Assembly (NCBI GenBank): GCA_965248925.1
Contig: CBDFLE010000005.1
Location: 1,408,001-1,472,000 of the forward strand
Length of the DNA stretch: 64,000 nucleotides
DNA from: Candidatus Multivoradales bacterium
Lineage (GTDB): Bacteria; Acidobacteriota; Thermoanaerobaculia; Multivoradales; J023
Reading direction: 5' to 3'
The position numbers and the translations under genes are program-made. The stretch's first letter is position 1. Each line of letters opens with the position of its first letter. The notes below the pieces were generated by a model. It made no database searches. It was not told the origin of the DNA and saw nothing but the letters and a program-made list of their open reading frames with translations. This document shows positions 28,771 through 43,523 of this stretch, piece after piece.

Positions 28771-30300
28771 ATGTTGGCACGAATATCTACAGCAACCCCC
28801 TGGGGAGTCGACGCCCGGCCGGTGCAAGTCGAGGTGGACGCCCACAACGGCCTGCCCCAAATGCAGATCGTCGGCCTCCCCGATGCCTCCGTACGCGAGA
28901 GCCGTGAACGCGTGCGATCGGCAATCAAGAATAGCGGCTTCGACCTGCCACCCAGAGCCGTGGTGGTCAACCTGGCTCCGGCCGATCTGCGCAAAGAGGG
29001 CAACCACCTCGATCTGGCGATCGCCCTCGCCTTACTCGCCGCTCTCGGCCAGGTGCCCGAAGAGGCTCTGGCCGGCCGCATGTTCTGCGGCGAGCTGGGC
29101 CTAGATGGCGGCGTGCGCCCAGTGCGCGGCGGCCTGGCTTTGGCCGCTTTAGCCACCCGGCAGCAGCTCCGCGAGTTGCTGCTGCCAGCGGCCAACGCCA
29201 GTGAGGCGGCAGCACTAGGCAGTGTACCGGTGATCCCGACCCGCAGTCTCCGCGAAGTGGTCGACCACCTCACCGGCCGGCAACCCCTACAGCCCGCTAC
29301 CGCCGACGATTTTGGCCAGCACTCCCTGCCCGGCTGCGCCCTCGACTTAGCTGAAGTGCGGGGGCAGCAGGCCGCCAAACGGGCGTTGGAAGTCGCTGCG
29401 GCCGGCGGGCATAATCTGCTTTTTATTGGCCCGCCTGGTTCCGGCAAGACCATGCTCGCCAGGCGCTTACCGGGATTGCTGCCGCCGCTGAGCCTCGAAG
29501 AGTCCATAGCGGTCACCAAGATCCACTCGCTGGTGGCCGAAGAACCCCCTTCACGGCTGGTCGAAGAACGACCCTTCCGCAGCCCCCATCCTGGCACCAG
29601 CACCGCCGGCCTGATCGGTGGCGGTTCCATTCCCCGTCCAGGTGAGGCCAGCCTGGCGCACGCTGGGGTGCTGTTTCTCGACGAGTTGCCCGAATTCCGT
29701 CGGGACAGCTTGGAGGCCCTGCGACAGCCGCTCGAAGAGGGTACCGTCACCGTGGTACGGGCACGAGCGCGGCTTTGCTTTCCGGCTCGCTTCGCTCTCC
29801 TAGCCGCGATGAATCCCTGCAAGTGCGGGCATTTGGGGGACGATCGGCATCACTGCAAATGCTCGCCACAGATGATCGAACGCTATCGCAGTCGGGTCTC
29901 AGGGCCGCTTCTCGACCGCATCGACATGCATGTCGAGGTGCCGGCGGTGAGCCTTGCCGAGTTGCGCAGCGAAGCCACCGAAGGGACTCGGGAAGTAGCG
30001 TGGAGAGTGCGCCAGGCGAGAGAGATCCAGCGCAGTAGATTCGGCTCCCAGACGGACGTGCCGGTCAATGCCTCCCTGGGGAGCGACGGCATCGAGCAGC
30101 ATTGCGTGCTAGCGCCCGATGCCCAGCGCTTGGTCGACACCGCCTTCGACAAGCTCAAGCTGTCGGCACGGGCACTCAGCCGCATCCTCAAGCTATCCCG
30201 CACCATCGCCGACCTCGACAGTTCGGCGGAGATTCGGGCAGCGCATGCCGCCGAGGCCATTCAATACCGCAGCCTGGACCAGCGATCGGAGCGAGGCTGA
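28771..30300 (+). CDS. comM: ComM/YifB Mg-chelatase-like AAA+ helicase
   Basis: IVGLPDASVRESRERV, GPPGSGKT, GEASLAHAGVLFLDE, SGPLLDRID; appears intact. Confidence 0.93.
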   Translation: MLARISTATPWGVDARPVQVEVDAHNGLPQMQIVGLPDASVRESRERVRSAIKNSGFDLPPRAVVVNLAPADLRKEGNHLDLAIALALLAALGQVPEEALAGRMFCGELGLDGGVRPVRGGLALAALATRQQLRELLLPAANASEAAALGSVPVIPTRSLREVVDHLTGRQPLQPATADDFGQHSLPGCALDLAEVRGQQAAKRALEVAAAGGHNLLFIGPPGSGKTMLARRLPGLLPPLSLEESIAVTKIHSLVAEEPPSRLVEERPFRSPHPGTSTAGLIGGGSIPRPGEASLAHAGVLFLDELPEFRRDSLEALRQPLEEGTVTVVRARARLCFPARFALLAAMNPCKCGHLGDDRHHCKCSPQMIERYRSRVSGPLLDRIDMHVEVPAVSLAELRSEATEGTREVAWRVRQAREIQRSRFGSQTDVPVNASLGSDGIEQHCVLAPDAQRLVDTAFDKLKLSARALSRILKLSRTIADLDSSAEIRAAHAAEAIQYRSLDQRSERG

Positions 30301-31265
30301 TGCCACGTTTACCACGCTACTTGCCGCGTCCCGGCTGCTTGGTCGAGATCACCCAGCGGACTCTGCAAGGGCGCTACCTCCTACGACCGAGCCGGCGTCT
30401 CAATCAGCTTCTAATCGGAATTCTTGCCAAAGCCCAGCAAGAAACCGAGCTCGCCGTCCATGCGATCGCCGTCCTCTCAAATCACTTCCACCTACTCGCT
30501 TCACCGGCCACCGTCGAACAGATTGCGCGATTTATGGGACACCTCAAGACCAACATAGCCAAAGAAATAGGTCGTCTCCACGACTGGCCCGGCTCGATGT
30601 TCGACCGGCGCTACACCATGATTCCGGTCAGCGACGAAGAGGAAGCTCAGATCAAGCGCCTCGAGTACCTCCTCTCTCAAGGCTGCAAAGAAGGGCTCGT
30701 GACGTCACCCCTCGAGTGGCCGGGAGCCCACTGCGCAGGAGCGCTCCTGACGGGCTATCCGCTGAGGGGAATCTGGATCGACCGCACTCGGCAATGGGCG
30801 GCGAGCCAGCGCGAGGCCGACACCGGGGAATCCGACTTCGTAACCGACGTCGAGCTAAAGCTCGACAACCTGCCATGTTGGAAGCATCTTGCGCTAGAAG
30901 CCCAGCAGCAACACATCTTGGAGCTCATCGAGAAGATCGAGAGAGATACTGCAAGACTCCATCAAGACCGAGGAACCGAGCCCCTCGGCGCATTCCTCGT
31001 CGGCCAGCAGCAGACACATCGACGCCCCGGCCAGCAACCGACAAACCCACCCCCCTTCTTTCACGTCTATCGGAAGAAAGTCCGGCACGCGATGCGCTTG
31101 GCCTTGGGCGAATTCCTCACTGCATACCGTACGGCCGCAGAGAAACTTCGAAGCCGTGGAGCACCTAGCGGATTTCCTGAAAACTCCTTCCCGCCAAGAC
31201 CAAAATTCGTCACTGCTGTCCCGTTAACTTCGCAGAAAAATAGGCTCAAACCTCCCTGGTCTTGA
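30300..31265 (+). CDS. HUH Y1 transposase, RAYT/TnpA-REP-like; C-terminal tail replaced by IS4 insertion
   Basis: ATG overlaps comM stop (TGATG); EITQRT, VLSNHFHLL (HUH), MFDRRY, RLEYLLSQGCKEGLV..EWPG (candidate catalytic Tyr). Original end FVDTNTPSDSS* lies beyond the IS at 32493-32523. Confidence 0.85.
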   Translation: MPRLPRYLPRPGCLVEITQRTLQGRYLLRPSRRLNQLLIGILAKAQQETELAVHAIAVLSNHFHLLASPATVEQIARFMGHLKTNIAKEIGRLHDWPGSMFDRRYTMIPVSDEEEAQIKRLEYLLSQGCKEGLVTSPLEWPGAHCAGALLTGYPLRGIWIDRTRQWAASQREADTGESDFVTDVELKLDNLPCWKHLALEAQQQHILELIEKIERDTARLHQDRGTEPLGAFLVGQQQTHRRPGQQPTNPPPFFHVYRKKVRHAMRLALGEFLTAYRTAAEKLRSRGAPSGFPENSFPPRPKFVTAVPLTSQKNRLKPPWS

Positions 31266-32483
31266 TAGAATCAGTCATCGCTAAACGGCTGAATCAAAGG
31301 GAGATCTGAGCCTTGGCACATCATAGCACCGTCTTCGCCCAGCTACTGCAACTGATTTCGAGACATGAATTCGAGGCCCTCGCAAAACGCCACCACGCCG
31401 GTCGCCAGTTCCGCACTGCGAGCCGCTGGTCGCAGCTGGTGGCTCTGATGATGGCCCAGCTGTCCGGGCGTTCTAGCTTGCGCGACATCGTTGACAATCT
31501 ACGAGCGCAGCGGCACAAGCTCTACCATCTCGGCTGCCGAGTCCTGTCGCGATCTAACTTGGCACGGATCAACGAAGAGAAGCCCTATCTCCTTTTTGAA
31601 GAGCTATTTGGGAGACTTCTGGGGCATGCTCAGGCAGTGGCGCCCAAGCATACGTTCCGGTTCAAGAACCGCTTGTTCTCGCTTGACGCCTCGGTGATAG
31701 ACCTCTGTCTGTCGATATTCCCATGGGCGAAGTTTCGTACGACCAAGGGAGCGATCAAGCTGCATGTGGGGTTGGATCACGGTGGCTACTTGCCTGCCTT
31801 CGTTGCGATCTCGGATGGAAAAACAGGTGACATCGCGGGCTGCAAGAGCCTGACGCTGCCACGAGGAAGCATCGTAGCTTGTGATCGTGGTTACAACAGC
31901 TACAGCTGGTTTCGTCAGCTGAGCGAGAAGGGTCTTTTCTTTGTGACCCGTCTGAAGCGCGGGGCCAAGTACCGCGTGACCGAACGTCGAAGAGTCAATC
32001 GTTCCAAGGGTTTGATGAGCGACCAAACGATCGAATGGACCGGTGTGAAGGCGTGTCGTGACTGCCCGATGCCTCTGCGGAGAGTAGGCTATCGCGACCC
32101 TGAGACCGGCAAGATCTACTATTTCTTGACGAACCTGTTCCGCCTGTCACCTCAGACCATTGCCGATATCTACCACGAACGTTGGCAAATTGAACTCTTC
32201 TTCAAGTGGATCAAGCAGAATCTGAAGATCAAGACTTTCGTCGGCACCAGCCGCAACGCCGTGCTGACTCAGCTTTGGATCGCCATGTGCGTCTACCTAT
32301 TGCTCGCTTTCATCAAGCACAAGCACCGTCTTTCCAGTAGTTTACGGGAGGCCTTGCGCCTCCTTCAATTGAACCTCTTTGAGCGCCGCGACCTCATGGC
32401 CCTCTTGAAACGAGAGCCGCCGCCGATCCCAGGACTAGACGAAAGACAACTGGTAATCGTCGGAAGTTAACGGGACAGCAGTG
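31211..32483 (+). mobile_element. IS4-family insertion sequence, complete
   Basis: 21-bp perfect terminal IRs CACTGCTGTCCCGTTAACTTC (31211-31231 / 32463-32483); 9-bp target duplication AAAATTCGT (31202-31210, 32484-32492). Confidence 0.95.
31313..32470 (+). CDS. IS4-family DDE transposase
   Basis: SLDASVIDL, IKLH, CDRGY, YHERWQIELFFKWIKQNLKIK. Confidence 0.95.
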   Translation: MAHHSTVFAQLLQLISRHEFEALAKRHHAGRQFRTASRWSQLVALMMAQLSGRSSLRDIVDNLRAQRHKLYHLGCRVLSRSNLARINEEKPYLLFEELFGRLLGHAQAVAPKHTFRFKNRLFSLDASVIDLCLSIFPWAKFRTTKGAIKLHVGLDHGGYLPAFVAISDGKTGDIAGCKSLTLPRGSIVACDRGYNSYSWFRQLSEKGLFFVTRLKRGAKYRVTERRRVNRSKGLMSDQTIEWTGVKACRDCPMPLRRVGYRDPETGKIYYFLTNLFRLSPQTIADIYHERWQIELFFKWIKQNLKIKTFVGTSRNAVLTQLWIAMCVYLLLAFIKHKHRLSSSLREALRLLQLNLFERRDLMALLKREPPPIPGLDERQLVIVGS

Positions 32484-32515: not shown

Positions 32516-32542
32516 CTTCATAATGTGCCTGGCACCTATTTC
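32516..32542. repeat. REP-like palindromic repeat, copy 1
   Basis: CTTCATAATGTGCCTGGCACCTATTTC; overlaps the original RAYT stop codon. Confidence 0.85.
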
Positions 32543-35387
32543 TGCGTGCGCCGCGGGGCCCTTTCCGCGAGACATCTTGGAGATCGTATTGTAGGTCTCA
32601 TTCGCCAAGTTTGAGTGGTACGATTTGGATCGCTTGAGCTTTCCGCTGATCAGATCTCCGATTTTTCGATTGCCAAACCCACCGGGGCCTACGGGCATCA
32701 TGCCTATTTTGCAAACTCCGGCATCGACACAATCCATGAAGTTTCCGCTCTGTGGTAATCTAAAGGATTCCAGGATCAACGCCGTAAAACTTTTCTTTGT
32801 TCCCTCTGAGGAGGTCCCTGCCGTGACTTGTAAATCGCGATCTGAAGGAATGGATGTGGAATCCGTCGAACTCTCTTGTGAAAACTCACTGATCACATCG
32901 ATAGATGATGAAAAACAGAGCCCTAGCAAACAAGGGTCAATAATAAATGCAAATCCGTCAAGCGGTGTTGCCCCAGAAGGATCATTGAAGAGAAGGGGAC
33001 GATTGTTAACATAAGAAACACGATTCCACGAGCGGGATTGCGGGATGGGAGTACCGTCGGTAGCCGGATCTACACTCAAGAACCGCCCCACCACCGGACT
33101 GCAATGCCGAGCATGCATGTAGTCAAGCTCACTCTTCGCCCCCACGCCGTTCTTGTCTCGCTCATGCCCGGTAAACTTCAGCTGAAACTCATCCGAGCTA
33201 GCACTGGTTGCCTCCTGCCCAAACGGATAGTAACTGTGCTGCGCCACTTGGGTGCCATTCTTCGTCACCTGCCGTGGTGTACCGAGATGATCTAGATGAA
33301 AGCTGTAAGTCTCTTCGACACCACTGGCGTCCGGGTCTACCGAGGCTAGGAGCTGTCCACCCCGGTAGACGTAGTCCCGCTCCCACTCGAAGCTTTCGCC
33401 CCGCGGATGGGTGAAGACCCGCAGCACCTCGTTGCCGAGCCCGCGCAAGGTCCAGGTCTCGCTGGCCGGGCTGCTGACGCAGCTGCTGCCGGCGGCGCTG
33501 AAGCAGCTGAAGGTGACGATGCGCTCGTCGTCAGCGTTGTAGATGTACACGCTCGCCTGGTCGGTGTTGCTTTGCAGGTGCTTCATCATGTTGGCGGCGT
33601 CGTAGGTGTACTGGTAGATCTCCGAGCTACTGTAACGCACGCGGGTCAGGTTGCCGCCAGCGTCGTACACCGTGCCGCTGAGGCCGAGGCGGTTGGTGCT
33701 GCTGCTCGGGCTCATGGTCTGGCTGGCGCCGTGGGTGACCATCTGGGTAAGGTTGCCGAAGTTGTCATAGCTCGCGGTCTGTAGGCGGTCGTTGCTGCCG
33801 ACTTTTACCTCGCCGCTGACCAGGCGCTGGAATCGGTCATAGCGATATTGCAAGGAGCCGATGCGGTGGATATTTCCGGCTCCGTCGTAGTCGAAGGTGC
33901 CGGTGTCCCAGCCGGCGTTGGTAGAGATGCGCTCGGGCCGGGCGAGGCCGGAGGGATCGACCTGGCGGGTCTCGGTGATGCCGCTCTGGTGGCTGATCTG
34001 GGTCAGCATGCCGCCGCTCTGGTAGCTGAGGCTGGAGGCGAAACCGGGGACCGCGGTGAGGAAGCCCTTGTCGTAGGCGAAGCTCACCTGCCGCGGTGGG
34101 CTGACCTGATCGCAGCTGTCGTTGCTGTGCAGGCAGTCAGGATAGTCGAGGGTCGCGAGGTTGCCTTGCAGATCGAAGGTGAAGCCGGCCTGGAAGGCGT
34201 AGTGGCCGACGCCGAGCTGATAGCGAGTCTGGCGCTCGGACATCCGGCCGCCACGACCCGCGTAGACGAAGCTCTCGGAGACCCGGACATCGAGGAAGCC
34301 GGGATTGGCGTTCAGCGGATTCACCAGATCCACCCAATTGTGGCGGGTGGTCTGCACCAGCTTGCCGGCCCGCTTGTCGAGACCTACGTTCTGGCGGCCG
34401 TAGCGGAACTCCTTCAGCCGGCGTGGGTTGCCCCCGTTGTTCTCGTCGACGCGGATCAAGCGAGCCGCTGGATCATAGAAATAGTCGAGGTCAAATTCGG
34501 TGGAGCCACCGATGCGTTTGCTCAAAACGCTGCCACGAGCATCATAGGAATAGGTCGTGGCGCCGTTGCCCACTGGGCCGACTTCGGGATGGGTCTCGGA
34601 GGTCAGGAAGCTGCGACCGTCATAGTTGAAGAAGCGTTGCTGGCCACAGGTCGATCCAGTCCGATTCTGGCAAACGTGGGTGAGCCGCGAGCCGGCGTCG
34701 TAGGCGTAGCGAGTCAGCAAGCCGCCCGCGTTGCAGCTGCCATTCCAGGCCGCCGATCTGCCTTCACAAACCTCGAACAATCGGCCCTGGCCATCGGAGA
34801 TCTCGGTGTTGTAGGTGTCTTCTTGCACTCCGGAGGCGAGCATCACTTTGAACCGCCGCGTCTTGGTGCGTTCGCCCTCGTAGCTGAGGAATGTGGCCGG
34901 CTGGCTTGGTGGGGTGATCCTGCCGGGGCGGCCGAAGTTGTCGTACTGCTCGTACTTGGTGACGCGGCTGTCGGAAGTGGCGTTAAGGGTCCACACCGAT
35001 TCCGCGGTCTTCCAGGCCCGCGGGTTGAAGCTCATGTGGCGGTACCACCTCACCCCGCCGGGCAACTGTACCTGCTCTTTGACCCGGCGGCCGAGGCCGT
35101 CGAAAGTGTGCTGGCGGTAGGCCAGCAGGCCGGAGCCCGAGCAAGCGGCGGTGGTGACGCATTGCTCTTCGGTCAGTAGCGGCACCAGGTTGAAGTTGCT
35201 CTGGGTGGCCAGCCGGTAGGTGTAGCGGCGCACTGCTTCGCTCTCGGGAAACTCATGGGTCAATCGGCCCTGCCGGTCATAGAGGAAGTCGATCTTGACC
35301 CCGGCGCTGTCTCGGCTGCGTTTGACCAGGCCGGTGTTCTTGTCGAGATCGTAGTCGGCCAGTTTGAGCAGCACCTCGCTGGTGGCG
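32543..35387 (-). pseudogene. Rhs/YD-repeat polymorphic toxin fragment lacking N-terminus and toxin end
   Basis: YD repeats; core FHLDHLGTPRQ, YYPFG, KFTGHERD, GRFLSVDP, NDPSG; AT-richer C-terminal tip. Frame runs into the repeat at both ends; no clear RBS or immunity gene. Confidence 0.85.
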
Positions 35388-35532
35388 CCGCTTCATAAGG
35401 TGCCTGGCACCTATTTCCGTCGCACCTATTTCCGCTTCATAAGGTGCCTGGCACCTATTTCCGGCACCTATTTCCGTCGGCAAGCAGCTAAGCAAGCAGC
35501 CCGCTTCATAAGGTGCCTGGCACCTATTTCCG
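35388..35532. repeat. Cluster of three full and two half copies of the REP-like repeat
   Basis: CCGCTTCATAAGGTGCCTGGCACCTATTTCCG at 35388, 35432, 35501; half copies GCACCTATTTCCG at 35422 and 35464. Confidence 0.92.
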
Positions 35533-35702
35533 AGAAACGCACCCCCGCCAATCGTGGCCGCTGTTGAAGTAGTTGGCCTAGGCCGTTGTTGAGTTTCTCT
35601 CCCTGGCTTGACGTAGTACGGTATTCTCTCAAGTAACTAGTCTTAGATTCTTCGAATGCGCCGCCCGGAAGCCGCCGGCTGCCAAGTGTAGGGGGCAGGA
35701 GT

Positions 35703-38943: not shown

Positions 38944-41139
38944 TTGATGGGCGAACCGAAGAGTAGCGTGGCAAGCGAGGTGGGAACGCCAGCGATGGCT
39001 TCACACCGGTCGGCCTTCACCGTGGTGTTTTGGGCCAGTTTCCTGGGGTTGTTCCTCGAGCTGGCCTTGATCCGCTGGGTGTCGAGCGAGATCCGCGTCT
39101 TCGCTTACTGCAAGAACCTGGTGTTGGTCGCTTGCTTTCTGGGATTTGGCGCTGGCTGCTTCTTGGCGCGGCGCAAGATAGAGCTGCTGCGGTCGATGTT
39201 CGTCTTGCTGCTGCTCGTTCTGGTAGTGCGTCTGCCGTGGCAATCGCTGCAAGAGTTCGGCCCCCGTCGGGTCAGCGACATCTTGGCCGAGTTCTCCGGT
39301 TTCATGATCTTTCACCAGCAGGTCGAAGGGCGGTGGACCGAACTCGGTCAGCTGCTCTTCGCGATCGGCTGGACCAGCGTGATGTTCTTCGCCGCGGCCT
39401 ACATCATGGTGCCCTTCGGTCAGCTCACCGCCGCCGCCATCAGCAAATTCGACAGCCCGGTGCGGGCCTACTCGATCAACGTCGCCGGCAGCCTGCTCGG
39501 CATCCTCACCTTTAGTTTGATGAGCAGCATCGGCACGCCGCCACTGATCTGGTTCGTACCGATCGTTTTGGGTTGTTTGATCTTTGTCGACAGCTCGGCG
39601 GGCGCCGATTCGCCCTCGACGGCGGCGCCGCGCTGGCAAGCCCAGGCGCTCATCGGCCTGGCCCTGGCGATGACCCTGGTGATGCTGCCCGACAATCGGC
39701 CCAGCTTCAGAACCTTTTGGTCGGGCTATCAGAAGCTGTCGGTATTCGAAGGCCGTGAACCGGGAGTCGCCTGGCATATTTTCGTCAACAACACCGGCTT
39801 TCAGAACTTGCGCCCACAGCCCACCTTGGCAGAGAGCGGCGACATCTCGATCGATCGTTTCTCCATGCCTTATGCCTTCCGTCGACCCGCCGGCAAGGTC
39901 CTGATCGTCGGCGCCGGCAGCGGCAACGACGCCGCCATAGCGCTCAGGGCCGGGGCCACCTCGGTGACCGCGGTCGAGATCGACCGCAAGATCTACGAGC
40001 TCGGAGCAGAGCTCCATCCGCAAGCTCCGTACTCGGACCCGCGAGTCGAAGTGGTGATTGACGACGCCCGCAACTACTTGAAAAGGAGCCATGAGCTCTT
40101 CGATGTCATCGTCTTCAGCCACCTTGACTCGCATGCCCTGCTGTCCTCTTACACCAATGTCCGATTGGACAACTACATCTACACCGTCGAGGCGCTCCGC
40201 GAGGCGCGCAGCCGCCTGGCGCCCGGCGGTATCGTCTATATCTCCTTTTTCGCCCAAGAAGCCTTCGTCGGCCATCGCCTGGCGACCAATCTTGAGGCCG
40301 CTTTCGGACACCCACCGGTCTACCTGCAGAGCGCCCGGCGTCAGGGAGATCGCGAAGTGCTGCACAATGTTTATCTGCTGACCGGCGAAGCCGAGGTTCA
40401 AGAGCAGCTCCAGGCGGCGGCCGCGGGGTGGAGTGACTTCGCGGCGGTACCGGCAACCCATGAGGTAGATCCCTCCACTGATGCGTGGCCTTTCTTGCCG
40501 CTCGAAAAGCGCTCTATCCCGCCTTTTATATTGCTGATCTCGATCGTCATCCTGGCCCTTTCGCTGATCTTCGTGCTCGCCGCGCGCCCCTCCGGCGCCG
40601 CGTTCGATGGCCGAGTCTTCTGGCTTGGCGCCGCCTTCATGTTGCTCGAAGTCCACAACGTCTCACGCCTGGCGCTGGTCTTCGGCACCACCTGGAAGGT
40701 CAACGCCTGGGTGGTCGGAGTGATCTTAGGCCTGATTCTGCTGGCCAACGCCACCTATCTGGCACTGAGCCGCCGCGGTCGCCGGCCTGGCCGGTGGGCG
40801 GTAGGCGGGCTATTCGCGACCCTGGCGGCGGCCTGGTTGGTGCCCTTGGAGACCTTCATCGGAGCGGACCTGGTCTGGGGGCCCGCCGCCGCCACCCTGC
40901 TGCTGTCGGCGCCGATCTATTTCGCTGGCCTGGTGTTTGCCGAGGCCTTCGCGGAGAGTGCCGCGCCGGGCTTCGCCCTGGGCTGGAACATCCTCGGAGC
41001 CGTGACCGGCGGGATGCTCGAAAACCTCTCCTATGTCGCTGGAATTCCAGCCCTGGTGCCGCTCGCGGCGCTGCTCTACCTGGCGGCGATCGCCTGGCCG
41101 CGCTCGCCGGTCTCGGCGCCCATCCGACAACCGGCTTGA
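38944..41139 (+). CDS. Membrane protein with spermidine-synthase-like SAM-binding domain
   Basis: LFLELALIRW, AYSINVAGSLLG, VLIVGAGSGND, AVEID, DDARNY, TDAWPF. Confidence 0.85.
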   Translation: MMGEPKSSVASEVGTPAMASHRSAFTVVFWASFLGLFLELALIRWVSSEIRVFAYCKNLVLVACFLGFGAGCFLARRKIELLRSMFVLLLLVLVVRLPWQSLQEFGPRRVSDILAEFSGFMIFHQQVEGRWTELGQLLFAIGWTSVMFFAAAYIMVPFGQLTAAAISKFDSPVRAYSINVAGSLLGILTFSLMSSIGTPPLIWFVPIVLGCLIFVDSSAGADSPSTAAPRWQAQALIGLALAMTLVMLPDNRPSFRTFWSGYQKLSVFEGREPGVAWHIFVNNTGFQNLRPQPTLAESGDISIDRFSMPYAFRRPAGKVLIVGAGSGNDAAIALRAGATSVTAVEIDRKIYELGAELHPQAPYSDPRVEVVIDDARNYLKRSHELFDVIVFSHLDSHALLSSYTNVRLDNYIYTVEALREARSRLAPGGIVYISFFAQEAFVGHRLATNLEAAFGHPPVYLQSARRQGDREVLHNVYLLTGEAEVQEQLQAAAAGWSDFAAVPATHEVDPSTDAWPFLPLEKRSIPPFILLISIVILALSLIFVLAARPSGAAFDGRVFWLGAAFMLLEVHNVSRLALVFGTTWKVNAWVVGVILGLILLANATYLALSRRGRRPGRWAVGGLFATLAAAWLVPLETFIGADLVWGPAAATLLLSAPIYFAGLVFAEAFAESAAPGFALGWNILGAVTGGMLENLSYVAGIPALVPLAALLYLAAIAWPRSPVSAPIRQPA

Positions 41140-41680
41140 GCACCTCGGTACCGACGCGTCGTGTTCCTACCGCTGCCAAGACAGGCCAGCTTCCCGGCCG
41201 TCGCCGGTTGCGAAGACCCGCCGCAAGTACCCCGCACGGACCAGCCCTCAAGACCCCTCCGGCGGCCAATTGTAAGAACGCCTTCCGCGGGATAGGATCT
41301 CTTCACAGAGTTAGTTTTCTGGTTCATCCGGGAAATGAGGAGGTGCTGGTCTCGCCGGACTGGTCATTCCAGTCCAGGCAGGCCCGCTGAGGTTTGGCGA
41401 GCCCCGCCGCTCGCTGAGTGTGGCGCCATCGGCTGACCGCCTCAAGGGTACGCTTCGCCGGCTCCTTCCCTCCTGCCGCCCCTGACCCGGCCAGCCGCTG
41501 TCGCTCCTGTAGGCCTGTAGGCGACGGGGAAAAGGCGATCTCGACGCAATCAAGCTGGTCTGGGCACCGAATCGAGCTGTTCTGTGAGCAGAGGACTAGG
41601 GGGGACTTGAGAGTTGTCGCCATGTCGATCATCCTGGTCGTATCTCCGCGTCATATGTGCCTTCTATGAGTCGGACGGTT

Positions 41681-41904
41681 CAAGTCAAGCAGAATGGTGG
41701 ATTCTGGTCGATGATTTCTCGCTGGTGACTGGGTCTGATCGGACGAACTTCTATTCGCACTCTTTGAGGCCTGATCGGAGGCCGGTGCATTACGAGCTTT
41801 GCGTCTAGAGACCCAAAGAGGGCGCTCCCATCTGGCACACGGAGTCCAAGCTCCAAGACAAACGTGGCCGTTCTAAGTCTTTTTTTTCTGTGAGTTTGTG
41901 GTGT
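41681..41904 (-). ncRNA. Candidate bridge RNA / seekRNA of the IS1111-type element
   Basis: Non-coding region downstream of the transposase with segments matching target+core (GTGCCAG) and donor junction (ATAGAAG, TCATC) in the expected order. Boundaries approximate. Confidence 0.65.
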
Positions 41905-42613
41905 TCAAACAGTCTGTGGAAAAGCGCGGAAGATGTCGCCAGAGATCCAGATCCGGTGGAGCACAACGGAGATCTTTCAGCCGAACCATCAGCTCATCAT
42001 CCTCGGAGAGCGACTCCAGCTGAGCACTCAGCTCCGCGATCTGCTGGTTCAGCTGAACGATCATCTCCAGCAGAGGATCCAGCACCAGGCGAAGCTCGTC
42101 CTCGACCTTCAGGCGGACGAAGCGGTCAACGAAGCGCCGGGTCTCACAACGCGACATCCGGTAGCCATGGGAGCGCAGCGTCCCTCGGATCGAGTTGATC
42201 AGTCTGGTGCGATTTCTCACCAGCTCGGTGCGAACCCGCAGGCGCGTCCGCAGAAGCTGCGCTGCTTTGCTACGCTGATACACGCTACCCAGCAACACAC
42301 CGTCGAAGCGACTCAGCCGAGCCAAGATCTCCGCATCGATCGTGTCGCTCTTCAGCGTGCTCTCAGCGATCAAACGCACCCACCGCGGGTTGACCACGAT
42401 GACCTCATGGCCCCAGCTCTTCAAGAGCCGATACAACCAGGGAGTCACAGTGCCACACTCCATCACTAGCCGAGAGCGCTCCCGCTTGGCGAAGAATCGC
42501 CGCAGCGAAGTCTCCGTGGTTGCGACTTGCCGGCGCTCCAGGACACGACCTCGGGAGGAAAGAACGTAGATCTCGCTGTACTTTGTGTGAGCGTCGATGC
42601 CAACAGGGTCCAT
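41905..42613 (-). pseudogene. IS110 transposase, internally deleted and frameshifted
   Basis: DEDD RuvC part (VGIDAH, VMECG, VNP, KSDTIDAEILA). After LMVRLK a different frame gives the family C-terminus KISVVLHRIWISGDIFRAFPQTV*; the Tnp20 region between is missing. Confidence 0.85.
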
Positions 42614-42914
42614 GGTCGGTTTCCCTTCGGGCACCACTGCGCCCTGGGGGGTTTCTCCCATGCAGGATGTCACTGATAGGAGACCGGCCGACTCATCTCA
42701 TCTGGCACCTATTTCTGGCAAGAGAGAACCCCGGAAATGCAGACAGCTATCTAGCTCACCAACTCTACAACCGCGATCTCGAACAAAGAGCGCTAAGGGG
42801 AGATCTAGCCCTTGACGGGCTACCCGCTAATGTGAATCAACTCTTTGGGCAAATCCCCATACTCAGCAGCCAAATGCTCCTGTAAGATCACGGCTTCTGA
42901 GAAGAGACGACGCT

Positions 42915-43523
42915 GTGAACCAAGACTCGGACATAACGGATCTGCTGCATGCCTGGCGGGATGGCGGCCCAGAGGGCCTCGATCAGCTGATGCCCCAGAT
43001 CATGGATGAGCTACGGCGGCTGGCCCGCGGCTACCTGGCGAGCGAAAGGCCCGATCACACCCTCCAACCCACCGCTCTGATCAACGAACTCTACCTGCGC
43101 TTGGCGGGGAGCCAACTGCGGGGCTTCGCCGATCGCCATCACTTCTTCGCTTTCGCCGCCAGCTTGCTGCGCCGAATTCTGGTCGATCACGGACGTGCCC
43201 GCCGCAGCCTCAAACGAGGGGGAAGGACCGAGCGGGTACCTCTCGATATGGCAGCGGACCAAGCGGCCAGCGCAGGTCTCGACCTGGACCTCGTGTTGGC
43301 GGTCGACCAAGCCCTGGCCAAGCTGGTGGACCTCAACCCACGGCAGGCGAAGATTGTCGAATTGCGCTACTTCGGGGGCCTGGGACTGCCGGAGATCGCC
43401 AGTCTTCTCGACTTGTCGCAATCCTCGGTGGAGAGAAGCTGGCGGGCCGCCAAACATTGGCTAGCCCACCAGATGACCAGCTCCCCAGCTTCAGCCCAAG
43501 CGCACGATCTACCGCTCAGGTAG
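42915..43523 (+). CDS. ECF sigma factor (kinase-associated, TIGR02999-like)
   Basis: DITDLLHAWRDG, HTLQPTALINELYLRL, RRILVDH, VELRYFGGL. Confidence 0.9.
   Translation: MNQDSDITDLLHAWRDGGPEGLDQLMPQIMDELRRLARGYLASERPDHTLQPTALINELYLRLAGSQLRGFADRHHFFAFAASLLRRILVDHGRARRSLKRGGRTERVPLDMAADQAASAGLDLDLVLAVDQALAKLVDLNPRQAKIVELRYFGGLGLPEIASLLDLSQSSVERSWRAAKHWLAHQMTSSPASAQAHDLPLR

Follow-up and report, generated by a model that had tools for sequence, protein, structure and literature searches.

Probable Remains of a Bridge RNA Gene in a Decayed IS1111-Type Element Inserted into a REP-Like Repeat

The Element and Its Insertion Site

The region considered here, positions 41681–41904 of a 64,000-nt stretch of the genome of a Candidatus Multivoradales bacterium (the window), lies within a short insertion sequence (IS) that interrupts a repeat of the repetitive extragenic palindromic (REP) type. 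Comparison with related elements identifies it as the 3′ non-coding end of an element of the IS1111 type, derived from a bridge RNA (seekRNA) gene. The element, its coding remnants and its target are made up of the following parts.

41661–42701, minus strand: relic IS1111-type insertion sequence, 1,041 bp, delimited by its junctions and by termini that recur in the 14 full copies of a related genome (G036) and in other genomes
42684–42696, minus strand: left subterminal inverted repeat, ATGAGTCGGCCGG, 5 nt in from the left end; reverse complement of 41678–41666 with one mismatch
41666–41678, minus strand: right subterminal inverted repeat, CCGTCCGACTCAT, read from the sequence and from alignments of relatives
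41975–42613, minus strand: N-terminal 213 codons of the transposase (DEDD/RuvC-like domain and coiled coil), identified with PF01548, NF033542 and the alignment of relatives
41905–41964, minus strand: out-of-frame leftover of the last 19 transposase codons and the stop (VLHRIWISGDIFRAFPQTV, then stop), found by comparison with relatives
42702–42716, minus strand: left half of the interrupted REP-like repeat, AGAAATAGGTGCC, plus the core AG; fits the consensus of the genomic AGGTGCCAGGCAC copies, 48 in number
41651–41660, minus strand: right half of the interrupted repeat, GCACATATGA (consensus GCACATTATGA), placed by the repeat consensus

Read on the minus strand, the left junction is ..ATAGGTGCC-AG followed by ATGAG (in longer form, ..AGAAATAGGTGCC-AG then ATGAGATGAGTCGGCCGG), and the right junction reads ..CTCATAGA-AG followed by GCAC (..CCGTCCGACTCATAGA-AG then GCACATATGA). 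In this accounting, the right-hand AG (41662–41661) is assigned to the IS and the left-hand AG (42703–42702) to the target. The insertion lies exactly within the REP-like repeat, as ..AGGTGCC-AG / IS / GCACAT. It is also site-specific: the rejoined flanks give the uninterrupted repeat AGAAATAGGTGCC-AG-GCACAT.., with a single AG and no duplication beyond the shared core. This sequence contains the 13-mer AGGTGCCAGGCAC, which occurs 48 times in the 7.98-Mb genome, many of the occurrences in arrays, against about 0.2 expected for a random 13-mer; the consensus common to the genomic copies is ..GAAATAGGTGCCAGGCACATTATGA... The rebuilt target and donor junction proposed in the initial annotation of this locus are correct on the basis of these junction reads and repeat copies. 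Inclusion of the left flank's GTGCCAG in the IS was considered and ruled out, because uninterrupted repeats join GTGCCAG directly to GCAC.

The 13-nt inverted repeat ATGAGTCGGnCGG sits 5 nt inside both ends of the element, and this subterminal layout is a defining trait of the IS1111 group. The non-coding ends measure 88 nt on the left and 244 nt on the right (41904–41661). Intact relatives are 1,324–1,415 bp long, with right non-coding ends of 250–350 nt.

The sole sizeable open reading frame (ORF) of the element, 41873–42673, continues into out-of-frame sequence. It matches PF01548 (DEDD) at 79.6 bits and no other domain, and on NF033542 (“IS110 family RNA-guided transposase”) it scores 119.8 bits against a cut-off of 140, covering profile positions 2–223 of 343. 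Alignment with a 337-amino-acid relative shows 54% identity across residues 1–224 and ends there. Since the alignment stops at this point and the last 19 codons lie out of frame, the Transposase_20 domain, which spans residues about 211–289 in relatives and holds the catalytic serine, has been deleted from the window copy. Relatives at 54–59% identity possess both PF01548 and PF02371 and reach 226 bits on NF033542. Because its C-terminal domain is deleted and its NF033542 score falls under the cut-off, the window copy is, on these sequence grounds, the remnant of an IS1111-group member and not a complete member.

Copies in the Genome and in Relatives

The assembly of the window's genome (G000) is 96.9% complete and consists of 6 contigs. 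It holds no full-length copy of the transposase or of the element; besides the window copy, three fragments were found.

C5:339283–339848: fragment A, a 529-bp left end joined to the last 41 bp
C6:1805355–1805609: fragment B, a 255-bp left-end fragment
C6, about 3823905–3824177: copy C, a solo non-coding end that includes the right terminus; 203 bp align with the window at 95% identity

N-terminal transposase fragments number three only in this genome, and its three left junctions of the element are all preceded by GGTGCCAG. The sole match to Transposase_20 (PF02371) belongs to an unrelated, frameshifted IS110-family element.

Relatives are found within the same bacterial order. A six-frame search of 201 genomes of the order (E ≤ 1e-20) recovered the N-terminal protein in 26, G000 included, the closest relatives being 54–59% identical, with 15 copies in G036 and 4 in G095. 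Genome G036 contains 14 full copies of 1,362–1,363 bp, which share their termini with the window element and lie in a different repeat, ..cGGTGAC-AG-GATACnTAT..; all 13 known left junctions read GTGACAG, and 13 of the 14 right junctions read AGGATAC. A 20-nt pattern taken from the non-coding end matches in 11 of 300 genomes of the order, with 8 pattern matches in G275, and a 22-nt version matches on 9 metagenome contigs. Outside the genomes of the order, the best match of the N-terminal protein among one-genome-per-species contigs is 33% identical over its best segment, and relatives this distant are uninformative on the RNA. The lineage is likewise distant from annotated transposases, with a best plasmid match by tblastn (72,556 records) of 34.6% identity and no named close IS. 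In one relative (L058, in G054), the sequence immediately before the left end, near position 2980, is ..CTCATGGAAG, which is the right end of a like element; this arrangement suggests a tandem or nested element pair.

A Conserved Predicted RNA Module in the Non-Coding End

When the non-coding ends are aligned, they share a conserved module of about 155 nt. For 19 sequences, RNAalifold predicts five helices: P1 (GGAC/GUCC), P2 (about 9 pairs), hairpin P3, P4 and hairpin P5. In intact relatives, P1 is the outer stem and P2 closes a target-binding loop, which contains, from 5′ to 3′, an 8-nt right-target guide, the small hairpin P3 and a 7-nt left-target guide. The second stem-loop, P4/P5, is flanked by donor-binding bases, with a candidate right-donor guide on its 5′ side and the left-donor guide ATAGAAG on its 3′ side. 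The window copy retains the following parts of this architecture.

41841–41854, minus strand: hairpin P3 (GGAG-CTTGGA-CTCC), between the two target guides; forms in the single-sequence fold
within 41757–41788, minus strand: stem P4, GCACC (41788–41784) with GAGTGC (41762–41757); invariant in the 19-sequence alignment, changed in copy C
41783–41779 with 41772–41768, minus strand: hairpin P5, GGCCT with AGGCC, inside P4; compensatory changes
41820–41829, minus strand: 3′ strand of P2, GGGAGCGCCC, orphan here
41741–41744, minus strand: 3′ strand of the outer stem P1, GTCC, orphan here
41689–41740, minus strand: variable spacer, unconserved in the alignments
41683–41688, minus strand: −35-like hexamer TTGACT, 22 nt from the right end

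The consensus structure of 27 pairs leaves 96.1% of 509 cells paired, versus 30–46% when the partners are slid by 1–3 columns. Two-sided, compensatory changes occur at 11 of the 27 pairs and are located in P2, P3 (3 of 5 pairs) and P5. P1 and P4 are invariant within the 19-sequence set; P1 co-varies in more distant relatives, and P4 carries GC to AU and CG to UG changes in copy C. None of 500 shuffles reaches the observed percentage of paired cells, number of two-sided pairs, number of two-sided cells or covariation score, and 31 of 500 reach the value of a fifth measure, further pair types, although all of these counts overstate significance because the sequences are related and not independent. 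A covariance model built from the 19 sequences detects exactly two loci in the window's genome: copy C, which scores 132.6 bits, and the window copy, with 102.8 bits. It gives one match in each of 22 sources, 17 of which lie outside the training set and have E-values from 5.6e-34 to 2.4e-6.

The TTGAC of the −35-like hexamer is kept in 26 of 28 aligned rows of relatives' non-coding ends. A promoter and terminator scan of 41550–42800 returned nothing, with no complete sigma-70-type promoter in the integrated state, and thus gives no support for the RNA having its own promoter when integrated. A promoter rebuilt across the circle junction has been described for the family (Durrant 2024, PMC11208160). 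By analogy, and with low confidence, TTGAC may serve as the −35 box of a promoter that becomes complete only at that junction. Of the sequencing runs listed as containing this DNA, four from one study, none is recorded as RNA, a result that speaks neither for nor against transcription.

Guide Segments and Their Co-Variation

Four segments of the module can be compared with the sequences that they would pair with or match.

41832–41838, minus strand: left-target guide plus core, GTGCCAG; matches the left flank and is intact in the window
41856–41860, minus strand: surviving 5 of 8 nt of the right-target guide, TGTCT, including the core complement; the ancestral form in copy C is GAGTGTCT
41748–41754, minus strand: left-donor guide plus core, ATAGAAG; same sequence as the final 7 nt of the IS
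41792–41797, minus strand: candidate right-donor guide, CTCGTA (CTCAnC in the family), lying a few bases upstream of P4; predicted to pair with ATGAG of the left end

The left-target guide consists of the 7 nt before AT-GGGAG and comprises 5 nt of left flank and the AG core. In 32 of the 34 copies whose left junction is known, the final 7 nt of the left flank agree with it completely; the remaining two (L082 and one copy in G275) agree at 6 of 7. It occurs in four variants, each of which corresponds to its own flank: GTGCCAG, GTGACAG (G036, G176), GTTCCAG (L081) and GTGTCAG (L086).

The right-target guide, the 8 nt just 5′ of P3 and upstream of the left-target guide, complements the core and 6 nt of the right flank. 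The fit is 8/8 in G036, L042 and L081 and 7/8 in L044, L085, L086, L087 and L088. Across 17 element types, complementarity to the element's own flank averages 6.47 of 8, versus 4.58 for 272 non-own pairs, and none of 20,000 permutations reaches the observed sum. With the core excluded, the means are 4.88 versus 3.57 of 6, again with none of 20,000 permutations. The scan was free of any fixed offset and gave own and non-own flanks equal freedom; the window row, whose guide is deleted, and L104, whose guide and genome are the same as those of L097, were left out.

The left-donor guide ATAGAAG is invariant in the close clade, as are the element ends. Among 14 distant relatives with a located right end, the segment equals the IS end in 13 and differs by one base in L052. 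Specifically, ATGGAAG is found where the end reads ..CATGGAAG and ATAGAAG where it reads ..CATAGAAG, and the close pair L056/L123 differs accordingly. For the right-donor side, CTCA in this clade is replaced by CCCA in relatives with the left end ATGGG instead of ATGAG. Within the family, three of the four guides, left-target, right-target and left-donor, are supported by co-variation.

A variant of the core occurs in some relatives (L078 and L080 of G095, L042 of G172, and L081, L083, L085 and L086 from metagenomes), in which the last base of the element is C and not G, ..ATAGAAC. Their right-target guide has GT instead of CT at the core complement and their left-target guide retains AG, so the two guides read different second core bases.

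The initial annotation had proposed a different set of guides, read by eye from the window copy: GTGCCAG (41838–41832) with ATGC (41790–41787) for the left and right target, and ATAGAAG (41754–41748) with TCATC (41714–41710) for the left and right donor. All four strings are present at these minus-strand positions. In 20,000 dinucleotide-preserving shuffles of 41681–41904, GTGCCAG appeared in 1.5% and ATAGAAG in 0.7%; the two co-occurred in 0.025% and stood in the correct order in 0.01%. All shuffles (100%) contained a 3-of-4 match to GTGC, and 74% contained at least one 5-mer complementary to part of the first 10 IS bases. These rates place the two 7-mers beyond chance, and ATGC and TCATC not. 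The proposed check, a covariance model with guide–target covariation, divides the set in the same manner. GTGCCAG varies with the flank and ATAGAAG with the IS end, and both assignments hold. ATGC overlaps the 5′ strand of stem P4 and stays invariant though right targets differ, the true right-target guide lying 5′ of the left-target guide, and TCATC falls in the unconserved spacer although the elements share the same left end; neither can be retained as a guide. The GAGC/GCTC and TTCG/CGAG stems drawn between the paired segments are outside the family consensus structure. In intact relatives, GGGAGC pairs with a 5′ strand and ..CGTCC with a 5′ GGAC(G), and both of these 5′ partners are lost in the window. 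The broader layout proposed, an IS1111-type RNA gene downstream of the transposase with its target-binding part 5′ of its donor-binding part, is borne out by the alignments of relatives.

Decay of the Window Copy

The RNA gene of the window copy carries an internal deletion.

41861–41879, minus strand: deletion scar, consisting of the 17-mer GACTTAGAACGGCCACG (41879–41863), common to copy C, and then TT (41862–41861)

After GACTTAGAACGGCCACG, copy C continues with 59 nt and then TGTCTTGGAG, and the window with TT and then TGTCTTGGAG, a loss of about 57 nt. The missing 59 nt hold AAGGACG (the 5′ strand of P1), GGGTGACTCC (the 5′ strand of P2) and the first 3 nt of the right-target guide GAGTGTCT. 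The deletion was placed by the 17-mer common to the window and copy C; a MAFFT alignment of these two with one relative opened no gap. The parts deleted here are present in all 18 other rows of the 19-sequence alignment. Single-sequence folds of copy C and L042 form P1, P2, P3 and P5 (z = −1.9 and −2.3, respectively), and the fold of the window RNA forms P3 and lacks P1 and P2 (z = −1.0), which cannot form because their 5′ strands are deleted. Together, the deletions in the RNA gene and in the transposase leave the window copy without a usable RNA scaffold and without a recombinase. By its sequence, the window copy is an immobile, inactive fossil. The proposal of a natural programmable guide aimed at a RAYT (REP-associated tyrosine transposase) repeat therefore stands in its REP/RAYT association and fails as a working guide, since internal deletions affect the RNA gene as well as the transposase gene.

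Comparison with Known Systems

Genes for RNAs in the right end have been predicted for 93% of catalogued IS1111-group members, and their donor-binding bases often lie in a multi-loop (Durrant 2024, PMC11208160). SeekRNAs have been demonstrated for four IS1111 members, including the REP-targeting ISPa11, and in their order the segment complementary to the top strand stands 5′ of the segment that matches it (Siddiquee 2024, PMC11187229). ISPpu9 lies within REPs and has a small RNA gene downstream, with solo copies elsewhere (PMC12288879), and the natural target of IS621 is a REP sequence (Choi 2003, as cited in Durrant 2024, PMC11208160, and Hiraizumi 2024, PMC11208158).

The window element resembles the REP-targeting IS1111 elements ISPa11 and ISPpu9/ISPpu10 of Pseudomonas in its DEDD transposase, its subterminal inverted repeats, the long non-coding end downstream of the transposase gene tnp and its REP-type target. 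Another shared trait, described for ISPpu9, is the presence of solo RNA genes at other genomic sites (PMC12288879). The order of the two target segments agrees with that described for IS1111 seekRNAs (PMC11187229), and the placement of the donor-binding bases at a multi-branch junction, not in a simple internal loop, agrees with IS1111 RNAs (PMC11208160). Compared with ISPa11 and ISPpu9/10 by their published descriptions, the window element is set apart by its core, AG, and by its doubly deleted copy.

Similarities to IS621 include two binding regions, target then donor; a 2-nt core shared by target and donor (PMC11208160, PMC11208158); a left guide that reads as the top strand plus core and a right guide that complements the top strand; and a REP natural target. 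A promoter rebuilt across the circle junction, as in IS621, may be a further shared feature. In contrast to IS621, the RNA of the window clade is encoded downstream of tnp, in the right end instead of the left; its right guide comes before its left guide, with a hairpin separating the two; and its donor guides surround a stem-loop that forms part of a multi-branch junction. Long subterminal repeats are a further difference. Overall, the window element matches the known IS1111 picture in every tested respect and differs only in its lineage and its fossil state.

Interpretation

Taken together, the evidence makes it very probable that the region is what remains of a bridge RNA (seekRNA) gene, located in the long non-coding sequence at the right end of an IS1111-type (IS110-family) element that is now a fossil. 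By analogy with work on IS621 and IS1111 elements, the RNA, bound by the DEDD/serine recombinase, would pair with both strands of the REP-like target and of the circular right end–left end (RE-LE) junction, and recombination would then take place at the AG core. The window element inserted exactly at AG/GCAC of the REP-like repeat and later lost the Transposase_20 domain and about 57 nt of the RNA gene, a stretch that included the 5′ strand of each of P1 and P2 together with three bases of the 8-nt right-target guide. On the same analogy, we infer that the RNA was made, was bound by the recombinase and directed recombination between the REP and the RE-LE junction.

Several points weigh against this interpretation. 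In addition to the kinship of the sequences used for covariation, an Rfam 15 scan of 41000–43200 (E ≤ 10) returned no bridge-RNA family and just three chance-level matches to microRNA and small nucleolar RNA families, and the RNA role of the non-coding end in this clade is predicted by comparison. The weakest right-target fits, in the single-copy relatives L040, L047 and L109, are 5/8. The ancestral guide GAGTGTCT of copy C likewise reaches 5/8 Watson-Crick pairs with the REP right half AG-GCACAT and would reach 7/8 with U-G/G-T wobbles. The right-donor guide CTCAnC is a candidate, suggested by its correspondence with the left end. Copy C, for its part, has diverged at several positions of P4 and of the candidate right-donor guide, and it is also altered just before the left-donor guide.

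A rival reading is that the locus encodes an intact, working bridge RNA with the layout of the initial annotation, GTGCCAG/ATGC around GAGC–GCTC and ATAGAAG/TCATC around TTCG–CGAG. Its four strings do occur in the proposed order, and the window copy alone does form local pairings other than those of the family. The invariance of ATGC under differing right targets, its position in P4 with a compensatory change in copy C, the lack of conservation around TCATC and the ubiquity of comparable short matches in shuffles (100% and 74%) nevertheless argue against it, as do the z-score of −1.0 for the window-only fold and the absence here of 57 nt that copy C and 18 of the 19 aligned relatives keep. This layout is hardly credible. 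It is also highly unlikely that the non-coding end acts only as DNA or as an ordinary 3′ untranslated region, providing recombinase sites or a terminator, with the protein selecting the target. In favour of that view, the RNA role within the clade is a comparative prediction, and the subterminal repeat and TTGAC very likely do act as DNA. Against it are the compensatory pair changes in P2, P3 and P5, and in P1 among distant relatives, and the short segments that track the left flank, the right flank and the IS end, a pattern that a site read by protein does not predict. Moreover, the family has been found experimentally to be RNA-guided (Siddiquee 2024, PMC11187229; Durrant 2024, PMC11208160).

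The relic RNA genes, in the window and in copy C, might instead have been kept for action in trans, either guiding a different IS110-family recombinase or working as a small regulatory RNA. The existence of copy C as a solo RNA gene with a right end is compatible with this, as are the solo copies of the downstream small RNA gene reported for ISPpu9 (PMC12288879) and the report that a seekRNA is not strictly bound to closely related transposases (Siddiquee 2024, PMC11187229). Against it, the one other IS110-family gene of the genome is frameshifted and shows no sequence relationship, P1 and P2 are missing from the window copy, copy C is altered in P4 and before the left-donor guide, and the scan of 41550–42800 found no promoter-like site. 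Retention for a role in trans is accordingly judged very unlikely, and a decayed bridge RNA gene remains the preferred explanation of the region.

The Target Repeat and Its Genomic Context

Uninterrupted copies of the target repeat and a RAYT-like gene are also found in the window.

30102–31265, plus strand: RAYT-like ORF, PF01797 Y1_Tnp at 30 bits against a cut-off of 23
32525–32536, minus strand: uninterrupted REP core GGTGCCAGGCAC, downstream of the RAYT-like ORF
35400–35411, 35444–35455 and 35513–35524: three further uninterrupted REP cores GGTGCCAGGCAC

A search of the window for the REP allowing at most one mismatch gave 7 matches against 0.70 expected, which correspond to four sites, three of them counted on both strands. 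Across the genome, GTGCCAGGCAC has 70 sites in 30 clusters and Y1_Tnp (RAYT-like) matches number 11. Three of these 11 loci lie within 3 kb of a repeat site, a count reached by 6 of 5,000 random placements, and at three of the 11 the REP-like repeat is directly downstream. In its copy number, its clustering and its proximity to Y1 genes the target fits a REP/RAYT system, and it is reasonable to call it a RAYT repeat, the action of a RAYT on it being putative. Between the RAYT-like ORF at 30102–31265 and the REP at 32525–32536 lies an IS4-like transposase gene (DUF4372 and DDE_Tnp_1; 31313–32470, plus strand), and two paralogous RAYT loci have the REP within 582–841 bp after the RAYT gene.

The sequences on both sides of the interrupted repeat recur elsewhere in the genome. 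The segment 41500–41646, about 150 nt to the right, has four more copies on contig C5 at about 79% identity, and the ORF listing at one of these copies contained nothing interpretable. The 118 nt at 42717–42834, to the left, are located upstream of an extracytoplasmic function (ECF) sigma-factor gene (42915–43523; PF07638) and are 92% identical to G000:C6:3897920–3898037, beside a second, unrelated, frameshifted IS110-family element.

Some REP arrays contain tandem duplicated half-units, namely at 35380–35540 of the window (minus strand), G000:C6:1089040–1089400 and G000:C6:2177180–2177560. The left halves terminate in ..GGTGC(C) and the right halves begin with (G)GCACATTAT..; the breakpoints fall at or beside AG, the core of the IS. 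Duplications of the left half also occur immediately to the left of IS copies in other genomes (L042, L080, L048, L049). A loose regular-expression search for half-repeats returned largely noise, and the array examples alone were retained. It could be, as a very improbable reading, that the half-unit duplications in this and related genomes are scars of RNA-guided recombination at REP sites, carried out by these elements or directed in trans by their orphan RNA genes.

Implications

The guiding of elements of this IS family to REP sequences by RNA is already in print for IS621, ISPpu9/10 and ISPa11, and the window copy itself, a fossil unable to move or to guide, is of little weight. Its examination also shows how far guides can be spotted by eye, the 7-mers having been right and the 4- and 5-mers wrong. 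For the mining of bridge recombinases, the locus leads to a clade of IS1111-type elements in one bacterial order and on soil-type metagenome contigs, with an RNA architecture of about 155 nt and with one genome, G036, that contains 14 full copies. Within this clade, natural retargeting can be followed at single-base resolution, as four left-target and many right-target variants match their own insertion sites. If the half-units of the REP arrays were indeed scars of recombination, then bridge-type recombinases, besides RAYTs, would shape these arrays.

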